A stretch of 64,000 bases of DNA, taken from contig JANQOU010000002.1 of NCBI GenBank assembly GCA_028285585.1, positions 203,263 to 267,262 on the forward strand, in the 5' to 3' direction. A program made the translations under genes and the position numbers. The notes under the pieces were generated by a model. It was not told where the DNA came from, did no database searches, and saw only the letters and a list, made by a program, of their open reading frames with translations. The stretch comes from Acidimicrobiia bacterium. GTDB taxonomy: Bacteria; Actinomycetota; Acidimicrobiia; Spongiisociales; ZC4RG35. Below are positions 1-8,531 of this stretch, piece by piece. Every line of letters begins with the position of its first letter. The stretch's first letter is position 1.

Positions 1-476
1 CCAACCTGGGCGTCGAGAATCTCGACGAAGTCTCCAACGAGACCATGGAGGCGGTCATCGCCGCCAACATCAACCACCCTCAGATCAACGGCATGAGGTT
101 GGCCCTGGCAGAGAGGTACTACCTGGCCGGGGACTACCAAGCCGCCTTCCCGCACTACCTGTCGGTGGCCGAATCCGCCAACGCCACCGACCTCGAATCG
201 GTGTCGGCCCTGGTCAGATTGGGTTGGATGGCGTGGGACGGCAATCAAGCAACCGAAGCGGCGCTGGGGATGTTCGATCAAGCTCTCGAGATCGCCCCGG
301 AGTCGACGACAGCGCTCTATCTGAAAGGACAGGTGTTGTGGTGTGGCAGCTCGGATCCAGAGGCGGCGACAGAGTTGTTCTCTGAGATCCTCGAGTCTGA
401 CGAGCTCCCCGACGACACCCGCCGGCTGATCGAAGCCGACCTGGCTGCCGCTTCGCAAGGATTGGCCTGCGCATGA
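1..476 (+). CDS. TPR-repeat protein, 5'-partial (the frame is open from the window edge). Possibly a cytochrome-c biogenesis CcmH/CycH-like TPR domain.
   Basis: The ORF at 45..476 continues without a stop back to position 3. The text has TPR-like helical repeats (YYLAGDYQAA, LYLKGQV). Its stop overlaps the start of the downstream TlpA-like gene as ATGA. Confidence 0.5.
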   Translation, partial: NLGVENLDEVSNETMEAVIAANINHPQINGMRLALAERYYLAGDYQAAFPHYLSVAESANATDLESVSALVRLGWMAWDGNQATEAALGMFDQALEIAPESTTALYLKGQVLWCGSSDPEAATELFSEILESDELPDDTRRLIEADLAAASQGLACA

Positions 477-1057
477 GAGGCCAGTGGTTGCGACGGTCAG
501 GCTTCGGCCTTGCGGCTGTGGCCGTTGTCTTCTCCGTGGTGCTCGCGTCGCGCTTTGGCGCCGACCCGGGGCTGGTCGAGTCTCCGCTGATCGGTCAGGC
601 TGCGCCCGAATTCACCCTCGATTCGCTGGACGGCAACGGCTCGGTGAGCCTCGTGGACATGCGCGGCCAGATCGTGGTGGTCAACTTCTTCGCCAGCTGG
701 TGTCCCGAGTGCCGCGCCGAGCACGCTGACCTCGTGGCGTCGTCCGACGCCTTCACTGACGGCGTGTCCTTCGTCCAGGTCTCCTATCAGGAGTCACCCG
801 AGACGTCCTGGAAGTGGCTGAATGAGGTCGGCACCTCATCGAACACCGCCTACCTGACCGATGATCGCAGCCGCACTGCCATCGCCTACGGCGTGTTTGG
901 GATTCCGGAGACCTTCTTCATCGACGCGAACGGCGTGGTGGTGGGAAAGATCATCGGGGAAGCCGATGCGCTGACTATCGGTGCGACCATCGACGCCATC
1001 AAACGAGGTGAATCACCTGGGCAGACCGTTGCCGGAGAGACTCGGCAGAGCCCCTAA
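473..1057 (+). CDS. TlpA/ResA/DsbE-family thiol:disulfide oxidoreductase, membrane anchored
   Basis: N-terminal TM segment. Redoxin core VVVNFFASWCPECRAE with the WCxxC motif, and a later YGVFGIPETFFID motif that matches the thioredoxin fold. Confidence 0.8.
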   Translation: MRGQWLRRSGFGLAAVAVVFSVVLASRFGADPGLVESPLIGQAAPEFTLDSLDGNGSVSLVDMRGQIVVVNFFASWCPECRAEHADLVASSDAFTDGVSFVQVSYQESPETSWKWLNEVGTSSNTAYLTDDRSRTAIAYGVFGIPETFFIDANGVVVGKIIGEADALTIGATIDAIKRGESPGQTVAGETRQSP

Positions 1058-2448
1058 GGCGAGATCAACTCCACGGAAACCTCCTCGAAGGTCACCGTCT
1101 CCAATGACGCAGGCCCAGTGCCGAGAAGGAAGACGTCGAAGAAGCCGAGCAGGTAGTTGTCGACTATCGGGATGATTCGCCCCGTCGCAATCGGGCCTTT
1201 CAGGCCCAAACTGGCCGCTAGCGGAGAGAACAGCGGTGTCACCACGAAGTCGTTGTGATGTGCCCCTTCGACTCCCAGCCAGTAGGTCACATCTTCGCTC
1301 CGGCCGGCAAGCCCGCGCAGAACCGCATCGTTCTCTGTGCCCCGCCACGGGTCCGACCTCATGTACAGCGACGGCCGGACCGGAGAGTTTCGGATGATCC
1401 GATCGGGCAACGGCTCCACCCAGGGATCGAGGCCAAGGACAGCATCACATCGCTCGTCGGTGAGGCACAGCTGGATGGCGGCGCCGCCACCGGTGGAGTG
1501 CCCGTACACACCGATCCGGGTCAAGTCGGCTCGTTCGGCAAGGATTCCGAACGGGCCATCTCTCCCCTGCTCCAACGAGCTGATGACATGCCCGAGGTCT
1601 GCCGCAAACACCGAGATCAACTCGGCAGCCGCGTTGCGGTACGCCTCCTCCCCCACTACCTCCTCGTCAGGGAGCGCGTTCTCGTCGTGAGTTATTACCT
1701 CACCGGAGGGGAACCGTGTTGCAACAGACCCGTAGGTGTGATCGGGTGCGACGACGATGTAGCCGTTGGACACCAGGTTCTCGATCTGGTTCACGGCAAT
1801 GGTGCGGAACCCAGTCCACCCATGGCTGTAGATGATGACTGGGAAGGTCCCGTCGATTATGGGAGCTTTGTCGTAGGTGTTGGACGTCGTGTACCGGGTG
1901 TGATTCAGGGTCCATGAGGGAAACCCGATGTTGGTAGCGGTGGCAGGGGCGACAACGTCCCAGTCCTGGCTCCACGGCAGTGGATCGTCATCTTCTGTCG
2001 GGTTGGCCGGATACCACACCTGCGCCATGTAGGTCCGGGGTGTGCCAGGGCTCGGCCCGTAAGCCTCCTGGCGGCTGGCGTCGATGAGCTGGAAAGAACG
2101 CGTTCCGATTGCCTCAGGCCCCGACGGCACCGGCATCACCGGCACAGGCAACAGGGCCGGAAGCAACACGAGAATGCCAACACCAGCCGACCCGGCGAAG
2201 GCCCTGGCGACGCGGTTGCCCCACTTCAGGTCCCTGTCGATGAAGAGGATGTCACCGACGGCCAGGCCGACAGCCAGCAGATAGAGCGGCACCATCTGCC
2301 AGCGATACCCTTCGATCTGGAGTTGCGCTATCAGCGTGACGATCAACGCGCCGGCCGCGATCCCTCGTCGAGGCCGCACCCCGAACGTAGCCGGCCAAAG
2401 CACCGCGAAGAGGATGGCGAAAGTGAGGGCCAGCTCGAACTGTCTCAA
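1054..2448 (-). CDS. Membrane-anchored alpha/beta-hydrolase (lipase/esterase, PAF-acetylhydrolase-like)
   Basis: The N-terminus has about 3 TM helices. The C-terminal domain carries GxSxG as GVYGHSTGGGAA plus YIVVAPDHTYGS. Confidence 0.6.
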   Translation of the reverse strand: MRQFELALTFAILFAVLWPATFGVRPRRGIAAGALIVTLIAQLQIEGYRWQMVPLYLLAVGLAVGDILFIDRDLKWGNRVARAFAGSAGVGILVLLPALLPVPVMPVPSGPEAIGTRSFQLIDASRQEAYGPSPGTPRTYMAQVWYPANPTEDDDPLPWSQDWDVVAPATATNIGFPSWTLNHTRYTTSNTYDKAPIIDGTFPVIIYSHGWTGFRTIAVNQIENLVSNGYIVVAPDHTYGSVATRFPSGEVITHDENALPDEEVVGEEAYRNAAAELISVFAADLGHVISSLEQGRDGPFGILAERADLTRIGVYGHSTGGGAAIQLCLTDERCDAVLGLDPWVEPLPDRIIRNSPVRPSLYMRSDPWRGTENDAVLRGLAGRSEDVTYWLGVEGAHHNDFVVTPLFSPLAASLGLKGPIATGRIIPIVDNYLLGFFDVFLLGTGPASLETVTFEEVSVELISP

Positions 2449-2477: not shown

Positions 2478-2882
2478 CTAGGTAGACCCGCTCCACGACC
2501 AATTGCCCGGGATTCTCGTCCCTTGGTGAAAAACCATCTGCCAGCGGCCCGCCCTGTGCACCCAGATTGAAGATCGCCGTGCCTCCTGACCTGCCTGTCC
2601 CACCGTTCGGTAGGTGACAAGCGCGGCGTTGTCGGCCAGGTCCCTGACGACGAAGTCCCGTATCAGGACCGCGGCGTGCTGCTCGTTGACCATCATGTCG
2701 ATGAGCATGTTCTTGTGATAGACCTTGCCTGAGCTGCCGAATTCAACGAAGTCGCTTCTCAGCAGCAGGTCGAGGCGATCTGGGTTCCCCCTGGTCTTTG
2801 GGTCGAGGATTTCCATCTCCAGCTTGTGGAGATCCTCATACCAAGGGTGTTCCCCGGTGGATACTTTGCGCAGTCGGTCCAA
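2478..2882 (-). CDS. NTF2-like / DUF4440 (SnoaL-like) small protein
   Basis: 134 aa. Motif pattern FVEFGSSGKVY...WVHRAGRWQMVFHQGT is typical of the DUF4440/NTF2 fold. Confidence 0.45.
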   Translation of the reverse strand: MDRLRKVSTGEHPWYEDLHKLEMEILDPKTRGNPDRLDLLLRSDFVEFGSSGKVYHKNMLIDMMVNEQHAAVLIRDFVVRDLADNAALVTYRTVGQAGQEARRSSIWVHRAGRWQMVFHQGTRIPGNWSWSGST

Positions 2883-2921: not shown

Positions 2922-3527
2922 CTATCCGGCCAGCGCTATCAACTCGTTGAGCCAGGCTTCGATCTCGGCGGGATCCTGCATACCCGCCCATTCGGTGACC
3001 ACGGTCCGATCATGAGCGATGAGGACTGTGACCGGCTGATACGGCACTCCGTAGGCGGAGAAGACCTCTTCCTCCTCATCGAGCCCCCAGAAGATCTTCC
3101 CTGATTGCAACAGCTCGTTGCCTCGGGCAAACGTGGCCTCAGGTGTGCTCTTCCAAGCCGGTGCCACAAAATCGATCCGGTCCCCGTACTCGGCGGCCAG
3201 CTCGTCGATGACGGGCAACTCCCGTCGACATGTCGGTCACCACTCAGCCCAGAAGACCATGAAAACCGGCTTCGAGCCCTCCGAGAGGGTGTAGGTGCTC
3301 CCGTCGGCCAGACGAAGGTTGAAGTCGGGTGCCACCGGCCGATCCGACGTCGGCTCCGTGGTCTCGGTGACTCCCTCACCCGGCTGGGGTGACTCGCCAC
3401 CCGTCGTGCCGGGCACCGCCTCGGTGGCAGTAGGAGAAACGCCACCAGATGTGGTTGGAGCCGGCTCTTGCACGGCGGCGGCCGAGCAGGCGGCGACGAC
3501 GAGAAACAGGGGCAGTATGCGACGCAT
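2922..3527 (-). CDS. Thioredoxin-fold (TlpA/redoxin-like) lipoprotein with an in-frame UGA at 3237..3239 (minus). Probable selenocysteine in a U-P-T-C active site.
   Basis: ORFs 3237..3527 and 2922..3218 lie in the same frame. Across the TGA the translation reads ...KPVFMVFWAEW-[TGA]-PTCRRELPVIDELAAEYGDRIDFV...YGVPYQPVTVLIAHDRTVV. That is a continuous redoxin fold with TGA exactly at the first Cys of WCxxC. Lipoprotein signal peptide LFLVVAACS. Confidence 0.7.
3210..3226 (-). promoter_or_regulatory. SECIS-like stem-loop 11 nt downstream of the in-frame UGA
   Basis: The mRNA reads UGA CCGACAUGUC GACGGG AGUUG CCCGUC. It has a 6-bp perfect stem and a 5-nt G/U-containing apical loop that starts at +11. 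This matches the geometry of bacterial SECIS elements. Confidence 0.5.
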
Positions 3528-3626
3528 CGGAAGTCACGCTATCCGTGTCGCTGTTTACGCCAAGTAAATCGCGGCTCGACCTCGACGCGCAGGGATCCTT
3601 GGCAATGCCTGTACAATCCGCTCCCC

Positions 3627-4088
3627 GTGCCCAAGACGACGCTGTATTTCGCCTACGGAGCCCTTCTCGACCCGGATCGAATCGCCGAAGTCGCCCCTGG
3701 CGCCGAGTTCCGGTTCATAGCCCACTACCCGGAGACGAAACTCGGCTTCGTTCCCAACGGCACCGATGGAGCGACTCCGACTTTGGTGCGAGACCCCGGG
3801 CACACGGTGTGGGGTGGGGTGTTCGAAGTGCCCGGCGACCAGGTTCAGGCGCTGACGACCGCCGAGAAGGCTGAGGGCCGAGAGCCCGGCTTCGACCACA
3901 AAGCCGTGGACCGTGAGGGCAACAAATACGACTGCCTTGCCTTCGTGGCTCCAGGCGACGCCGACAGCGACCACCGCCCGGACAGCGACTACCTCGCCTC
4001 CATGGTCAAAGGGGCCCGCCACTGGAGCCTCCCCGCCGGCTGGGTGATGGGTCTCGAAGACCTAGAAGAAGACCCGCTCTTCTCCTGA
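3627..4088 (+). CDS. Gamma-glutamyl cyclotransferase-like (AIG2/GGCT family) protein
   Basis: TTLYFAYGALLDP matches the GGCT YFAYGSNL signature. The listed ATG at 3468 would overlap the divergent selenoprotein start. A GTG at 3627 is the more plausible start. Confidence 0.6.
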   Translation: MPKTTLYFAYGALLDPDRIAEVAPGAEFRFIAHYPETKLGFVPNGTDGATPTLVRDPGHTVWGGVFEVPGDQVQALTTAEKAEGREPGFDHKAVDREGNKYDCLAFVAPGDADSDHRPDSDYLASMVKGARHWSLPAGWVMGLEDLEEDPLFS

Positions 4089-4161: not shown

Positions 4162-4803
4162 CTACTCCTCTACCGGGAACAGCCGGTACAAGGCCCAGGC
4201 GAGCACGGCACCAATGAGTGGCGCGTAGATGTAGAGGGCAAGCTGGCCAACGTCGCCGCCGACGACGGCAGGCCCGAACGAGCGAGCCGGGTTGACCGAG
4301 GCACCAGAGAAGGGGATGCCGGCGAGATGGACACCGACGAGGGCCATCGCAATGGCTCCCGGTGCGGCGGTCCCACCACGCTTGACCGTCACCATGATCA
4401 TCCACACAAACACGGCTGTGAGCAGGATCTCCACGATCAGGGCTGTCGAGAAGTCGGCGTAGCCTGTGGCTGTCGAGGCGACCGCGTCGCGGCTGGAAGC
4501 GATCCAGATGACGACCGCAGCCACCGACGCACCGGCGAACTGACCAATCCAGTAACCGATCGCATCACTGAGGGAGATCTCCCCGTTGAGGAGGAAGCCC
4601 AGAGTCACGGCCGGGTTGTAGTGGGCGCCGGAGACATGGCCGAGAGCCCAAATGCCGATCAGCAGCGCCAACCCGAAGGCGAAGGCGATTGCGATGATCT
4701 GGGCGGCTCCACCCGCTCCTCCAACGGCAAGGATGCCGAGGGAGCCGAGCCCCACGAGTATGAAGGTGCCCAGCAGCTCTGCGAGCACTTTGTTGATGAT
4801 CAA
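4162..4803 (-). CDS. aqpZ: Aquaporin (MIP family channel)
   Basis: Two NPA boxes (HYNPAVT and SVNPARS) and six TM segments. Confidence 0.9.
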   Translation of the reverse strand: MIINKVLAELLGTFILVGLGSLGILAVGGAGGAAQIIAIAFAFGLALLIGIWALGHVSGAHYNPAVTLGFLLNGEISLSDAIGYWIGQFAGASVAAVVIWIASSRDAVASTATGYADFSTALIVEILLTAVFVWMIMVTVKRGGTAAPGAIAMALVGVHLAGIPFSGASVNPARSFGPAVVGGDVGQLALYIYAPLIGAVLAWALYRLFPVEE

Positions 4804-5299: not shown

Positions 5300-5660
5300 T
5301 GCGAGCCTGTCGGGCGACCGCTGCCTGTTGTTCTCAACACGCAGAGGAAAGTCCGGACTCCACAGGGCAGGGTGCTGGATAACTTCCAGGCGGGGCGACC
5401 CGACGGAAAGTGCAGCAGAGAGCAGACCGCCGATGGTGCCGATTCGCATCGACACACAGGCAAGGGTGAAAGGGTGGTGTAAGAGACCACCAGCGTCCCG
5501 GGTGACCGGGGCGGCTCGGCAAACCCCACCCGGAGCAAGGTGAACAGGGGCGTCGGCGGCCCGCCGGCCAAGTCCCGGGTAACTGCAAGAGCGCCCCGGC
5601 AACGAGGCGCCCAGATGGATGGTCGTCTTCAACAGAATCCGGCTTACAGACAGGCTCGCC
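5300..5660 (+). ncRNA. rnpB: RNase P RNA (bacterial type A)
   Basis: Universal motifs GAGGAAAGUCCGG (5351..), AGGGUGAAAGGGUGGUGUAAGAGACCACC and ACAGAAUCCGGCUUA. P1 pairing is gcgagcctgtc (5301..) with gacaggctcgc (5649..5659). Confidence 0.9.
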
Positions 5661-5730
5661 CCCTCCCCCCTCCCCCCTCTCCGCCAACCTCAGGCAATAC
5701 GGCCCAGATACGGTAAGAATCACCTCGAGA

Positions 5731-6147
5731 ATGCAGCCTGCAAGACCATGGGGACCCAGCGAAACCCCTTACCTCGAGATCGGTGGTGACGAACACGTCC
5801 GTGCGCTGTCCGACGCCTTCTACGACAGGATCGACTCCGAGTCGCCCGTGCTCAGAGCGATGCTCCCTCGCAACACGGTCAAGACCAGGGAGAAGTTCGC
5901 CATGTATCTCTCCGGATGGATGGGCGGCCCTCCCCTCTACGAGATGAAGTGGGGCCACCCTCGTCTCAAGATGCGTCACATGCCCTTCACCATCGGCGCA
6001 TACGAGGCCGACGAGTGGATGCGTTGCATGCGCCTGGCCATGAACGACATCGGCATCGAGGCCGATCTGAGAGCCTTTCTCGAAACCCGATTCTCCGAGT
6101 TGGCCCAGCACATGCGCAACGCCGAAACCGTCACACCTGACTCGTAA
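5731..6147 (+). CDS. glbO: Truncated haemoglobin, group II (trHbO)
   Basis: EIGGDEHVRALSDAFYDRI and GHPRLKMRHMPFTIG are the trHb signature motifs. Confidence 0.85.
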   Translation: MQPARPWGPSETPYLEIGGDEHVRALSDAFYDRIDSESPVLRAMLPRNTVKTREKFAMYLSGWMGGPPLYEMKWGHPRLKMRHMPFTIGAYEADEWMRCMRLAMNDIGIEADLRAFLETRFSELAQHMRNAETVTPDS

Positions 6148-6157
6148 CCTTCGAGAC

Positions 6158-6844
6158 ATGTGCGGACGCTTCTCGATCACGGGAGACCTCGACTTCTACA
6201 CCGAGTACTTCGGGGTCGACGAAGTGCTCACCGACGAGTTGGACAAGAGCTGGAACGTCGCTCCCACCGACCCTGTGTACGTGATCTCGGAGCGGGAAGA
6301 CAGTCGGCAGCTCACGTCGATGCGATGGGGCCTCGTCCCCCATTGGGCAACCGATACCAAGACGATCCATATCAACGCCAGATCCGAGACAGTGGCCACC
6401 ACTGCGGCTTTCCGCGACTCGTTCGCCCGCAAGCGCTGCCTGATCCCCGCAGACGGCTTCTATGAATGGGAGCCCCCGGACCAAGGACGAACCCCACACT
6501 GGGTGTACAGGGCCGACGGGTACCCGATGGTCTTCGCGGGCATTTGGGCGTCGCGCATAGACCCCGAAACCGAGACCTGGCATCGAACCTGCTCGATCAT
6601 CACGGCTTACGCCCAAGGGACGATCAGCAGGATCCACGATCGCATGCCAGTGGCGCTGGTGCCCGATGTCTGGGACGCCTGGCTCGACCGCGACCTGCGA
6701 GATCCCGAGGTGGCCTCGACTCTCCTCCAGCCGATAGACCCCGACTCGGTGATGGAGCACGCCGTCTCGCGCAAGGTGAACTCGGTCAGGAACAACGAGC
6801 CTGCGTTGCGTGACAAACTCAACGATCCCGAGACACTCTTCTGA
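6158..6844 (+). CDS. SOS-response-associated peptidase (SRAP/YedK/HMCES family), an abasic-site DNA-protein crosslink enzyme
   Basis: N-terminal MCGRF (catalytic Cys2), followed by WNVAPTD and MRWGLVPHWA. Confidence 0.9.
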   Translation: MCGRFSITGDLDFYTEYFGVDEVLTDELDKSWNVAPTDPVYVISEREDSRQLTSMRWGLVPHWATDTKTIHINARSETVATTAAFRDSFARKRCLIPADGFYEWEPPDQGRTPHWVYRADGYPMVFAGIWASRIDPETETWHRTCSIITAYAQGTISRIHDRMPVALVPDVWDAWLDRDLRDPEVASTLLQPIDPDSVMEHAVSRKVNSVRNNEPALRDKLNDPETLF

Positions 6845-6869
6845 CGACAGGCCGGGCCAGGAGTACGAT

Positions 6870-8531
6870 TTGGGCGCTCTGAGAGTCTTCTTCCTCACCA
6901 CCATGCTGCTGGCCGCGCTCGTCTTGACTGCGTGCTCCGACTTCTTGGGTGACACGCCAGCCGGAACCAACGGCTCTACAGACGATGCAACCACAACAAC
7001 AGGCAACGCCGACTGCCTTCGTCAGAGCGAAGCCACGACCGAGATCGACACGGGCACCAACTCGAGAGACGCCTTGGCTATTGCCGGCAAGCTGTTCGTC
7101 TGCGCCGAGCACGTCGTAGTTGTCGCCGAAGACGACCTCAACCAGGTTGCTGTGGCGGCACAACTGGCCGCCTCCCTAGGAGGCCCGCTGTTCTTCCCCG
7201 ACGATCGACTGCCTGCCGAGTTGGGACGTCTTCACCCGGAGCACATTCACGTGGTCGGCGAGTTGCAGATCACCACCCCACCCGAAAGTGAGCTGCTGAC
7301 CTTGACCATGGCCGAAGCCGTGCAAGCAGCAGCTGATGCGCTGGGCGTGATCCAGACGGTGACACTGCCGGCCACGCCGAGCGCCACATCGATCATCGAA
7401 GCCGTCGCAGCGATCAACGCCCGTGACCGTGTGATCACCGCCGAGACCGCCACCGGATCTCCCTCCATCGACATGCGCGCGCTGATCGATGGATTGAATC
7501 CTCCAGCGGAAGCTGCCGAGGTGTGGATCACCGACGCCTCGGATCCGACTGGTGTCCTGCTGTCAGCCGCCTCGGGCAGAGCTGTTGGAGCTGCCACCGT
7601 TGCCATGGACCCCGCCAACGCACTCGAAGATCAGACGATCGGTCAGATCCTTCGCTCGACAACCGCGGCCTCCCGGCTCATCGGCTTGTCCGAGATCGAC
7701 GACTGGGAGCTTGCCCTCCTCACCGGCGGCCCAGAACTGCCGGGTGGAGGCTTCCTCATCCTTCCCGACGCCCAAAGACGCTACGTCGCCTTCTACGGCC
7801 ATCCTGAGACGACCGCTCTCGGTGTCCTCGGCGAGCAGGATGGCGAGGCGACCATCGAGCGGATGCGGCCGTTCCTGGAGGAATATGCGGCCGACGGTGC
7901 TCTGGTGATCCCGACGTTCGAGATCATCGCCAGCGTGGCCAGCGCCGGAGCCGGGGACGACGGCAACTACAGCTTCGAGTGGCCTGCCGAGACCTTCAAT
8001 GACCTCTTCGAGGCAGCAGAGCGGCACGACGCATACATCCTGTTGGACCTTCAGCCTGGACGGGCCGACTTCCTGACCCAGGCCAAGTTCTACGAAGACC
8101 TGCTTCTGCGTCCCAACGTGGGCCTGGCGCTGGATCCGGAGTGGCGACTGAAGCCCGATCAGGTTCATCTGGAGCAGGTGGGCACCGTCACCGCAGCCGA
8201 AGTCAACACGGTCATCGAGTGGCTCGCCGACCTGATTCGGGACAACGAGCTGCCCCAGAAGATGCTTCTGCTCCACATGTTCCGCACATCGATGATCACC
8301 GACCGCGAGTTGCTGGTCGATCGGCCTGAGCTCCAAATCGTGATCCAGATGGATGGCGATGGGACCGAGCCTCAGAAGGACGCTACGTGGAGTCGGCTTC
8401 GCGAAGGGTTTGAAGACGCCTTCTGGGCTTGGGGTTGGAAAAACTTCTTCGATGAGGACGAGCCAGGCCCGCCCACTCCGCTGTCGACCATCTCTAAACA
8501 GCCGACACCCGTTTACGTCAGCTACCAGTAG
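6870..8531 (+). CDS. Secreted lipoprotein with cell-wall-binding-like repeats and a C-terminal TIM-barrel-like (GHL) domain, hypothetical
   Basis: Signal peptide plus lipobox (LLAALVLTACSD). The listed ATG at 6810 overlaps the SRAP gene, so an in-frame TTG at 6870 is proposed. Repeats of the form LAIAGKLFVCAEHVVVVAEDD. Confidence 0.4.
   Translation: MGALRVFFLTTMLLAALVLTACSDFLGDTPAGTNGSTDDATTTTGNADCLRQSEATTEIDTGTNSRDALAIAGKLFVCAEHVVVVAEDDLNQVAVAAQLAASLGGPLFFPDDRLPAELGRLHPEHIHVVGELQITTPPESELLTLTMAEAVQAAADALGVIQTVTLPATPSATSIIEAVAAINARDRVITAETATGSPSIDMRALIDGLNPPAEAAEVWITDASDPTGVLLSAASGRAVGAATVAMDPANALEDQTIGQILRSTTAASRLIGLSEIDDWELALLTGGPELPGGGFLILPDAQRRYVAFYGHPETTALGVLGEQDGEATIERMRPFLEEYAADGALVIPTFEIIASVASAGAGDDGNYSFEWPAETFNDLFEAAERHDAYILLDLQPGRADFLTQAKFYEDLLLRPNVGLALDPEWRLKPDQVHLEQVGTVTAAEVNTVIEWLADLIRDNELPQKMLLLHMFRTSMITDRELLVDRPELQIVIQMDGDGTEPQKDATWSRLREGFEDAFWAWGWKNFFDEDEPGPPTPLSTISKQPTPVYVSYQ

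Follow-up and report, generated by a model that had tools for sequence, protein, structure and literature searches.

Selenoproteins in which selenocysteine (Sec) replaces the first cysteine in the redox motif of a thioredoxin-like domain are a known type. Catalogues have listed TlpA-like and redoxin selenoproteins with a UxxC motif since 2005 (PMC1088965; PMC13188914), and the current catalogue holds both a 'Redoxin family protein' (PF08534, UxxC; GOS 2008 / Peng 2016) and a 'UGC-containing TlpA family protein' (PMC13188914). Here we describe a gene of this type in a 64,000-nucleotide (nt) stretch of DNA from an Acidimicrobiia bacterium (GenBank assembly GCA_028285585.1, contig JANQOU010000002.1, positions 203,263 to 267,262 of the forward strand), which is referred to below as the window. 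The gene runs on the minus strand from 3527 to 2922 and is interrupted by an in-frame UGA. Our reading, to which we assign a probability of roughly 0.88, is that it is a single functional gene in which this UGA is decoded as Sec. Judged from its sequence, the product would be a member of the known type that is new or has at least not been described explicitly, and it may belong to one of the catalogued families.

The catalogued UxxC families share with this protein the fold (Redoxin/AhpC-TSA/TlpA-like), the U-x-x-C motif with Sec as the N-terminal nucleophile, widespread Cys homologs, and a bacterial Sec insertion sequence (bSECIS) directly downstream of the UGA with a G in its small apical loop. 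An initial annotation of the window had pointed to UxxC redoxins as an established selenoprotein class, and the catalogue entries agree with this, the class being itself a predicted one. The families of the catalogued representatives MGB1650493.1 and HEU0032618.1 were compared with our orthogroup by description only. Several marks of the orthogroup are absent from the descriptions in those papers, these being the lipobox, the FWAEW-U-PTC-RRELPV motif, the distribution in Acidimicrobiia and the fixed synteny. Two NCBIfam families, NF041057 (Rcas_1661 family thioredoxin-like (seleno)lipoprotein) and NF041054 (ResA-like WAxxUGC), share the concept of an exported or lipid-anchored thioredoxin-like protein with Sec in its redox motif. 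However, the window protein scores only 17 against 190 bits for the first and 25 against 300 for the second, and its motif is U-P-T-C where theirs is U-G-C.

The complete coding sequence occupies 2922..3527 (minus strand), from the ATG at 3527..3525 to the TAG at 2922..2924, and has 201 sense codons including Sec97. It appears as two minus-strand open reading frames (ORFs), 3237..3527 and 2922..3218, which are in the same frame. The sole stop between them is the TGA at 3237..3239 (codon 97), and six open codons, PTCRRE, link this TGA to the TTG 'start' of the second ORF. That the two ORFs share one frame and are separated by the TGA alone had been recognised in the initial annotation and can be read directly from the sequence; that the joined 201 codons encode a single TlpA/redoxin fold, also proposed there, is confirmed by Pfam. 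With U replaced by C, the Redoxin (E 5.6e-14, 52.6 bits against a cut-off of 26.6), AhpC-TSA (41.8 against 26) and Thioredoxin_2 (38.9 against 27) matches all span the TGA. The protein begins with a signal peptide carrying the lipobox V-A-A-C (LVVAA-C14, 3486..3527 on the minus strand), seen by direct reading of the sequence, in which Cys14 (3486..3488) is the predicted lipidation site and is kept in at least 90% of the homologs. An extracytoplasmic location is predicted from this lipoprotein signal. A linker of about 50 residues, rich in T, P, S, G and E, leads to the thioredoxin-like domain, which contains KPVFMVFWAEW-[UGA]-PTC-RRELPVIDE and, further on, GVPYQPVTVLIA. The UGA takes the nucleophilic position of W-U-P-T-C, as indicated by the alignment with homologs and by its own conservation. 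The resolving Cys100 of the U-x-x-C motif (UGU, 3228..3230, minus strand) is invariant in our alignment A3 and is encoded by TGY in all 79 Sec-type loci described below. Pro165 of Y-Q-P-V (3033..3035, minus strand), the predicted cis-proline loop facing the active site, is likewise invariant in A3, and aligns with the Y-P-T cis-Pro motif of Streptococcus pneumoniae Etrx1 (PDB 4hqs).

One genome per GTDB species was scanned with the family motif. This gave 276 relatives, and the locus counts given here refer to the best 80 of these 276, ranked by likeness to the Sec-form query; they are mutually related and do not represent the whole class. Among these 80 closest species-representative loci, nearly all from Acidimicrobiia metagenome-assembled genomes (MAGs), codon 97 is TGA in 76 and TGC or TGT in four. 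The TGA form is also carried by the complete genomes OZ244166.1 and OZ244163.1 (loci L012 and L023). A protein search returned about 55 full-length homologs, described as 'TlpA family' proteins of Acidimicrobiia and Actinobacteria MAGs, every one of which has W-C-(P)-x-C at the UGA column; the proposal that the UGA stands at the nucleophilic Cys therefore holds. The full-length Sec form was not found among the protein-database matches. The same search returned two fragments that end precisely at FWAEW, and in the DNA of both (metagenome contigs L001 and L002) there is a TGA at the matching codon after which the frame runs on, giving U-G-I-C and U-H-R-C respectively. The 76 genome loci, these two contigs and the window make up the 79 Sec-type loci used below. 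In all 79, a further 100-105 codons follow the TGA without a stop, and the median pairwise ratio of nonsynonymous to synonymous substitution rates (dN/dS) downstream of the TGA is 0.21 at a mean dS of 1.5. These two observations indicate that the C-terminal half is under purifying selection.

The conservation of the TGA bears directly on whether the gene is intact. A TGA is one base away from TGC or TGT, gene callers split the gene into two fragments, and no Sec machinery was found in the window, all of which might suggest a pseudogene, or a Cys codon altered by a sequencing or assembly error. However, the TGA is found at exactly this codon in 79 loci, which come from different species and assemblies, the homologs showing neither frameshift nor truncation at this point, and with a dS of about 1.5 these loci are not copies of one contaminant. 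The downstream codons are open throughout, with a dN/dS of about 0.2 at saturated dS, and a Sec-specific hairpin, described below, is upheld by synonymous codon choice. In addition, a second assembly, the Logan assembly of run SRR20820731 (L211), is identical to the window over 4448 nt, TGA included. We regard a pseudogene or an error as extremely improbable.

A reassigned code, in which TGA would be a sense codon for Trp or Gly, has in its favour the in-frame TGA itself and nothing more. TGA is the commonest ordinary stop codon, terminating 48 of the 79 Sec-type genes and 27 of the 45 long ORFs in the window that have a high G+C content at third codon positions (GC3); since it also serves as an ordinary stop, the code has not been reassigned. 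A screen for other conserved in-frame TGAs gave gene-end overlaps only, and this explanation can be given almost no credence. The open frame, the dN/dS and the use of TGA as a stop together therefore remove the pseudogene, sequencing-error and alternative-code explanations.

It might also be supposed that the TGA is a genuine terminator, and that the locus makes a 96-residue lipoprotein stub together with a 98-residue C-terminal fragment starting from the TTG at 3218. Both pieces are listed as ORFs, and both are called as genes in L211, where the gene caller splits the gene into products of 96 and 98 amino acids; the locus is thus annotated as two fragments, as had been anticipated. However, neither piece is a complete thioredoxin fold, and the C-x-x-C motif would be cut in two. 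The second piece has no signal peptide, and its TTG is the Leu codon of the SECIS loop. PTCRRE, which would lie between the two products, is conserved as coding sequence, and the Cys orthologs are single polypeptides. Two separate products are therefore very unlikely.

Ten Cys orthologs occur in the same synteny (L048, L056, L065, L082 and L205-L210), and the six that were looked up have the same MIP-GGACT-TlpA-DUF4440-hydrolase-ccm order. A neighbour-joining/Fitch estimate gives at least 10 switches between Sec and Cys within the family, as is typical of bacteria, whose dynamic Sec/Cys evolution has been described before. Three of the Cys forms, L208 (JGI Ga0451373_86470), L205 and L209, retain 5-6 of the 6 SECIS pairs together with the UUG and CCC codons, and look like recent Sec-to-Cys conversions. 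A scan of metagenomes for Cys-form DNA with the pattern TTYTGGGCNGARTGGTGYCC gave, among the matches listed, almost solely unrelated CPPC thioredoxins. The initial annotation had named a WCPEC protein at 473..1057 as the Cys partner of a classic Sec/Cys pair. The protein exists, and is a distant paralog (29% identical), but it is CcmG; the true orthologs with Cys are found at the syntenic position of other genomes, not in the window.

The initial annotation had further described a 6-bp hairpin with a 5-nt loop containing G and U shortly after the UGA, and had suggested that it has the position and shape of a bacterial SECIS. The hairpin is real, and lies on the minus strand at 3210..3226, within the codons R-R-E-L-P-V. 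GACGGG (3226..3221) pairs with CCCGUC (3215..3210) around the loop AGUUG (3220..3216), with 10 nt from the UGA to the first stem base and 16 nt from the UGA to the loop, and the calculated free energy is -9.2 kcal/mol for the bare hairpin and -12.5 kcal/mol with flanks. The published bSECIS model has an apical loop of 3-9 nt on a stem of 4-16 bp, a G in the first two loop positions, a UGA-to-loop distance of 16-37 nt and a minimum free energy (MFE) of at most -7.5 kcal/mol (PMC13188914). All four constraints, as quoted there, accommodate the hairpin (5-nt loop on 6 bp, A-G-U loop, 16 nt, MFE -9.2 to -12.5). The E. coli fdhF-type SECIS, represented by the bSECISearch consensus, is also an in-CDS hairpin after the UGA, with a small loop having G then U, a loop spacing of 16 nt and a stem beginning about 10-11 nt away. 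Compared with it, the stem in the window is much shorter (6-7 bp), has no obvious bulged U and is unrelated in sequence.

The comparative data were taken from an alignment of 60 nt from the 79 Sec-type sequences (alignment A2). The Sec forms have a common 6-bp helix, formed by columns 20-25 with 31-36 around a loop that is AGUUG or AGUUA, and RNAalifold applied to this alignment predicts exactly this helix. All six pairs are kept in 76 of the 79 loci. The hairpin also co-varies. At columns 20/36 a compensatory change from G-C to A-U is seen 10 times and to U-A once, and at columns 23/33 G-C changes to A-U four times, making 15 double-sided compensatory cells in total at two pairs. Paired cells amount to 93.5% in the helix and to 36-74% when the 3' partners are slid along, and none of 500 shuffles matched the observed covariation score. 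At columns 23/33 the change, found in L034, L046, L051 and L071, converts Arg CGG to Gln CAG opposite a silent change of Pro CCC to CCU. Here the RNA structure is shaping the protein sequence beside the active site, while the SECIS pair is kept.

Codon choice gives a further view of the same constraint. In the Sec forms Leu is encoded by UUG or UUA, and Pro by CCC or CCU, in 79/79 each, against 3/10 and 4/10 respectively in the Cys orthologs. This is in genes of a window where UUR makes up just 13.5% of Leu codons and CCG is the commonest Pro codon. The ten Cys orthologs use CUN and CCG freely, and keep a mean of 3.9 of the six pairs (range 3 to 6). Since both codon choice and pairing differ between the Sec and the Cys forms, the constraint acts at the RNA level and is specific to the UGA-containing genes. 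The identification of the hairpin as a SECIS is thus well supported, both by the published constraints and by covariation.

A search with the SECIS core motif found another hairpin with the same loop, CUGGGAGUUACCCAG, which lies about 2 kb upstream of the gene in ten loci (L027, L028, L031, L033, L040-L042, L044, L057 and L209) and is not accompanied by a UGA. Its position corresponds to that of a bacterial RNase P RNA (class A, 293 bits) at 5302..5662 on the plus strand of the window. It is probably a helix of the RNase P RNA, its likeness to a SECIS being coincidental.

Structural information was obtained from the AlphaFold2 model of a Cys ortholog, P0001, which is 71% identical to the window protein. 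The model has a mean predicted local distance difference test score (pLDDT) of 87, with values above 95 in the domain. A strand (84-89) is followed by WC93PTC96 and a helix (94-110), so that the first Cys, which corresponds to Sec97, lies just before helix α1. On this model, the predicted structure is a thioredoxin fold in which helix α1 carries the C-x-x-C at its N-terminus and the cis-Pro loop lies opposite. Foldseek placed the model with Mycobacterium tuberculosis DsbF (3ios), ResA (1st9/2f9s; template modelling (TM) score 0.9, root mean square deviation (rmsd) 1.4 Å), DsbE (1lu4), Etrx1/2 and CcmG, with an overall range for relatives of TM 0.85-0.91, rmsd 1.4-2.2 Å and 26-29% identity. The closest solved proteins by sequence (phmmer, E 3e-12 to 1e-6) are S. 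pneumoniae Etrx1 (4hqs/4evm), ResA and M. tuberculosis DsbF/DsbE. The model and its Foldseek placement suggest an extracytoplasmic thiol/selenol-disulfide reductase of the ResA/DsbE/TlpA type as the most likely identity of the protein. ResA, M. tuberculosis DsbE (MPT53) and DsbF, Etrx1/Etrx2, Bradyrhizobium TlpA and CcmG have in common with it the fold, the extracytoplasmic anchoring, the W-C-x-x-C geometry and the cis-Pro loop. All of the solved extracytoplasmic relatives use Cys, whereas the window protein has Sec at the attacking position, and the bona fide CcmG (473..1057) is a separate protein whose gene adjoins the selenoprotein unit. The scores against the NCBIfam models are 56 against a cut-off of 170 bits for ResA, 32 against 230 for TlpA, 32 against 123 for DsbE and 33 against 210 for StoA. 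As no model reaches its cut-off, the protein is not an ortholog of any characterised member.

The following mechanism can be proposed. By analogy with the established SelA/SelB/SelC/SelD pathway, the hairpin at 3210..3226 would recruit SelB-GTP-Sec-tRNA(Sec) to the ribosome stalled at the UGA, and Sec would be inserted at codon 97 to give W-U-P-T-C. The signal peptide and lipobox suggest that the precursor would be exported and lipid-modified at Cys14, after which the linker of about 50 residues would tether the domain to the outer face of the cytoplasmic membrane. There, as the ResA, M. tuberculosis DsbE/DsbF, Etrx1/2 and TlpA fold would imply, Sec97 may attack a substrate disulfide or sulfenate. 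Cys100 would resolve the mixed selenenylsulfide, leaving an intramolecular Se-S bond that a membrane electron donor would re-reduce. The client area is most likely the maturation of respiratory or haem proteins, or the repair of envelope proteins, as suggested by the conserved neighbours, namely a DUF4440 gene, a gene for a membrane α/β hydrolase and a ccm cluster in convergent orientation.

Several observations weigh against this account. The locus counts are not independent, because the loci were ranked against the Sec-form query and are phylogenetically related. The hairpin is of ordinary stability, its 66-nt context, which is GC-rich, giving z = -0.28 against dinucleotide shuffles, so its significance comes from the comparative data; it also overlies the conserved peptide RRELPV, and part of the nucleotide conservation is therefore driven by the protein, and 6/6 pairs persist in one Cys ortholog, L208. 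None of the Rfam SECIS models matches the hairpin, and a permissive threshold on 3150..3290 gave chance matches only, the Rfam bacterial SECIS models being family-specific. Neither the window nor the loci yielded a second selenoprotein gene. The screens for one covered TGA read-through candidates in the window, filtered by GC3, and TGAs whose position is conserved between loci, and the candidates that they gave were off-frame noise and overlapping gene ends only. A tblastn search with E. coli DsbD, which is of low sensitivity, found no DsbD/CcdA-type electron donor nearby, and what is proposed for the function, for the client and for the direction in which electrons flow is inferred from sequence and by analogy. 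Finally, neither ARAGORN nor Rfam found a tRNA-Sec in the 64-kb window, and tblastn of E. coli SelA, SelB and SelD against the window and 82 related loci gave nothing below E = 0.6. ARAGORN found no tRNA of any kind in the 82 related loci. These loci total about 1.25 Mb and all represent one genomic neighbourhood, so the absence of sel genes from them and from the window says little.

A literature search on selenium use and selenoproteins in Acidimicrobiia found one relevant source, a preprint on Actinomarina; a match to 'Ilumatobacter' was irrelevant to selenoproteins in this class. According to the preprint, selA/B/C/D and about five selenoproteins per genome are present in all 84 complete genomes of Actinomarina, a member of the Acidimicrobiia (bioRxiv 10.64898/2026.04.03.716425). 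The support for Sec decoding in Acidimicrobiia is class-level literature, namely this preprint.

The last of the alternatives is that the UGA is recoded to something other than Sec, either by a SelB-delivered, Cys-charged tRNA(Sec)-like tRNA or by near-cognate read-through to Trp or Cys. Sec-to-Cys recoding is reportedly known from some Actinobacteria, in work of 2016 by Mukai et al. The sequence data speak for hairpin-aided decoding of the UGA, whatever the amino acid inserted; neither selA nor selD was found in the window or the related loci, and Cys works at this position in many orthologs. However, the loop G-U and the spacing fit the canonical SelB-dependent model, and in the only complete Acidimicrobiia genomes that the literature covers in this respect, selA and selD accompany selC. 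Moreover, a UGA and a SECIS would bring no obvious benefit if the product were a mere Cys, given that TGC is one mutation away and that at least 10 Sec/Cys switches have occurred. We consider such recoding unlikely, and insertion of Sec remains our reading of the locus.

The genes around the selenoprotein gene were clustered across 83 loci, with counts that are limited by the extent of the contigs. The conserved order is a MIP channel, a divergent GGACT gene, the co-directional Sec-TlpA, DUF4440 and platelet-activating factor acetylhydrolase (PAF-AH)-like hydrolase genes, and a convergent ccmA-B-C-E-F-H-G cluster. In the window the DUF4440 gene (2478..2882, minus strand; Pfam) lies 39 nt downstream of the selenoprotein gene, and is found in 31 loci as well as in the Cys-form loci. 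It is followed after 29 nt by the most conserved neighbour of all, a membrane-anchored PAF-acetylhydrolase/chlorophyllase-like α/β hydrolase (1054..2448, minus strand; Pfam), which is downstream in 71 of the 83 loci. The gaps of 39 and 29 nt suggest that the three genes form one operon. Convergent to them is the end of a System I cytochrome c maturation cluster, represented by the C-terminus of a CcmH/TPR protein (45..476, plus strand; the gene begins upstream of the window) and by CcmG/DsbE with its WCPEC motif (473..1057, plus strand), for which DsbE is the best NCBIfam match. The genes ccmH, ccmG and ccmF are present in 51-56 loci, and the full ccmA-B-C-E-F-H-G set is found in L209 (11901..18739).

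On the other side, the divergent gene is a GGACT/AIG2-like gamma-glutamyl cyclotransferase (3468..4088, plus strand), and the MIP-family channel (4162..4803, minus strand) follows; both are conserved neighbours in related loci. Further upstream are a truncated (bacterial-like) globin (5731..6147, plus strand), an SRAP peptidase (6158..6844, plus strand) and a lipoprotein-like ORF of 573 residues (6810..8531, plus strand), which has no Pfam match and occupies the same relative position in 22 related loci. The distant Sec form of L001 (2848..4031) has a different neighbourhood, lying beside lgt (prolipoprotein diacylglyceryl transferase), another AhpC/Redoxin gene and a histidine biosynthesis operon. 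The linkage to ccm and the hydrolase is therefore not universal.

Two further observations concern the neighbourhood. Actinobacteria are usually described as users of System II (ResB/ResC/CcdA). A complete System I ccm cluster faces the selenoprotein unit in convergent orientation, with conservation in more than 50 of the related Acidimicrobiia loci, and if System II is the actinobacterial norm then System I in Acidimicrobiia may merit attention. Secondly, the Acidimicrobiia-type syntenic locus occurs on contigs of MAGs labelled Boseongicola, Gammaproteobacteria or Acidobacteria (L006, L049, L014 and L017); these are probably mis-binned contigs or mislabelled bins.

The finding leaves the understanding of Sec decoding and of thioredoxin-fold catalysis unchanged. 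What is notable about this member of the type is its wide conservation in Acidimicrobiia, its lipoprotein nature and its compact, well-supported SECIS, whose 17 nt open the covariation with the encoded peptide to study. It is an exported, lipid-anchored addition to a list of selenoproteins made up mostly of cytoplasmic enzymes. The gene is systematically mis-annotated, being split into two fragments in the assemblies examined and covered by no NCBIfam model, and as a result a thioredoxin-like envelope protein is missing from many Acidimicrobiia MAG proteomes. The finding also points to a dependence on selenium in a widespread and poorly cultured actinobacterial class. A bolder proposal, which we put forward tentatively and consider doubtful, is that the Sec form is ancestral and dominant across much of the Acidimicrobiia, in soil and marine members alike, and that the protein has a functional link with the System I ccm machinery next to it. 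If this were true, the family would be a clean natural case of Sec and Cys replacing each other repeatedly (at least 10 events), in which the SECIS lies within the helix of the active site. Selenium would then be a widely required trace element for the redox upkeep of the envelope or the respiratory chain in a major, mostly aerobic actinobacterial class, in which its use has so far been noted only for Actinomarina.

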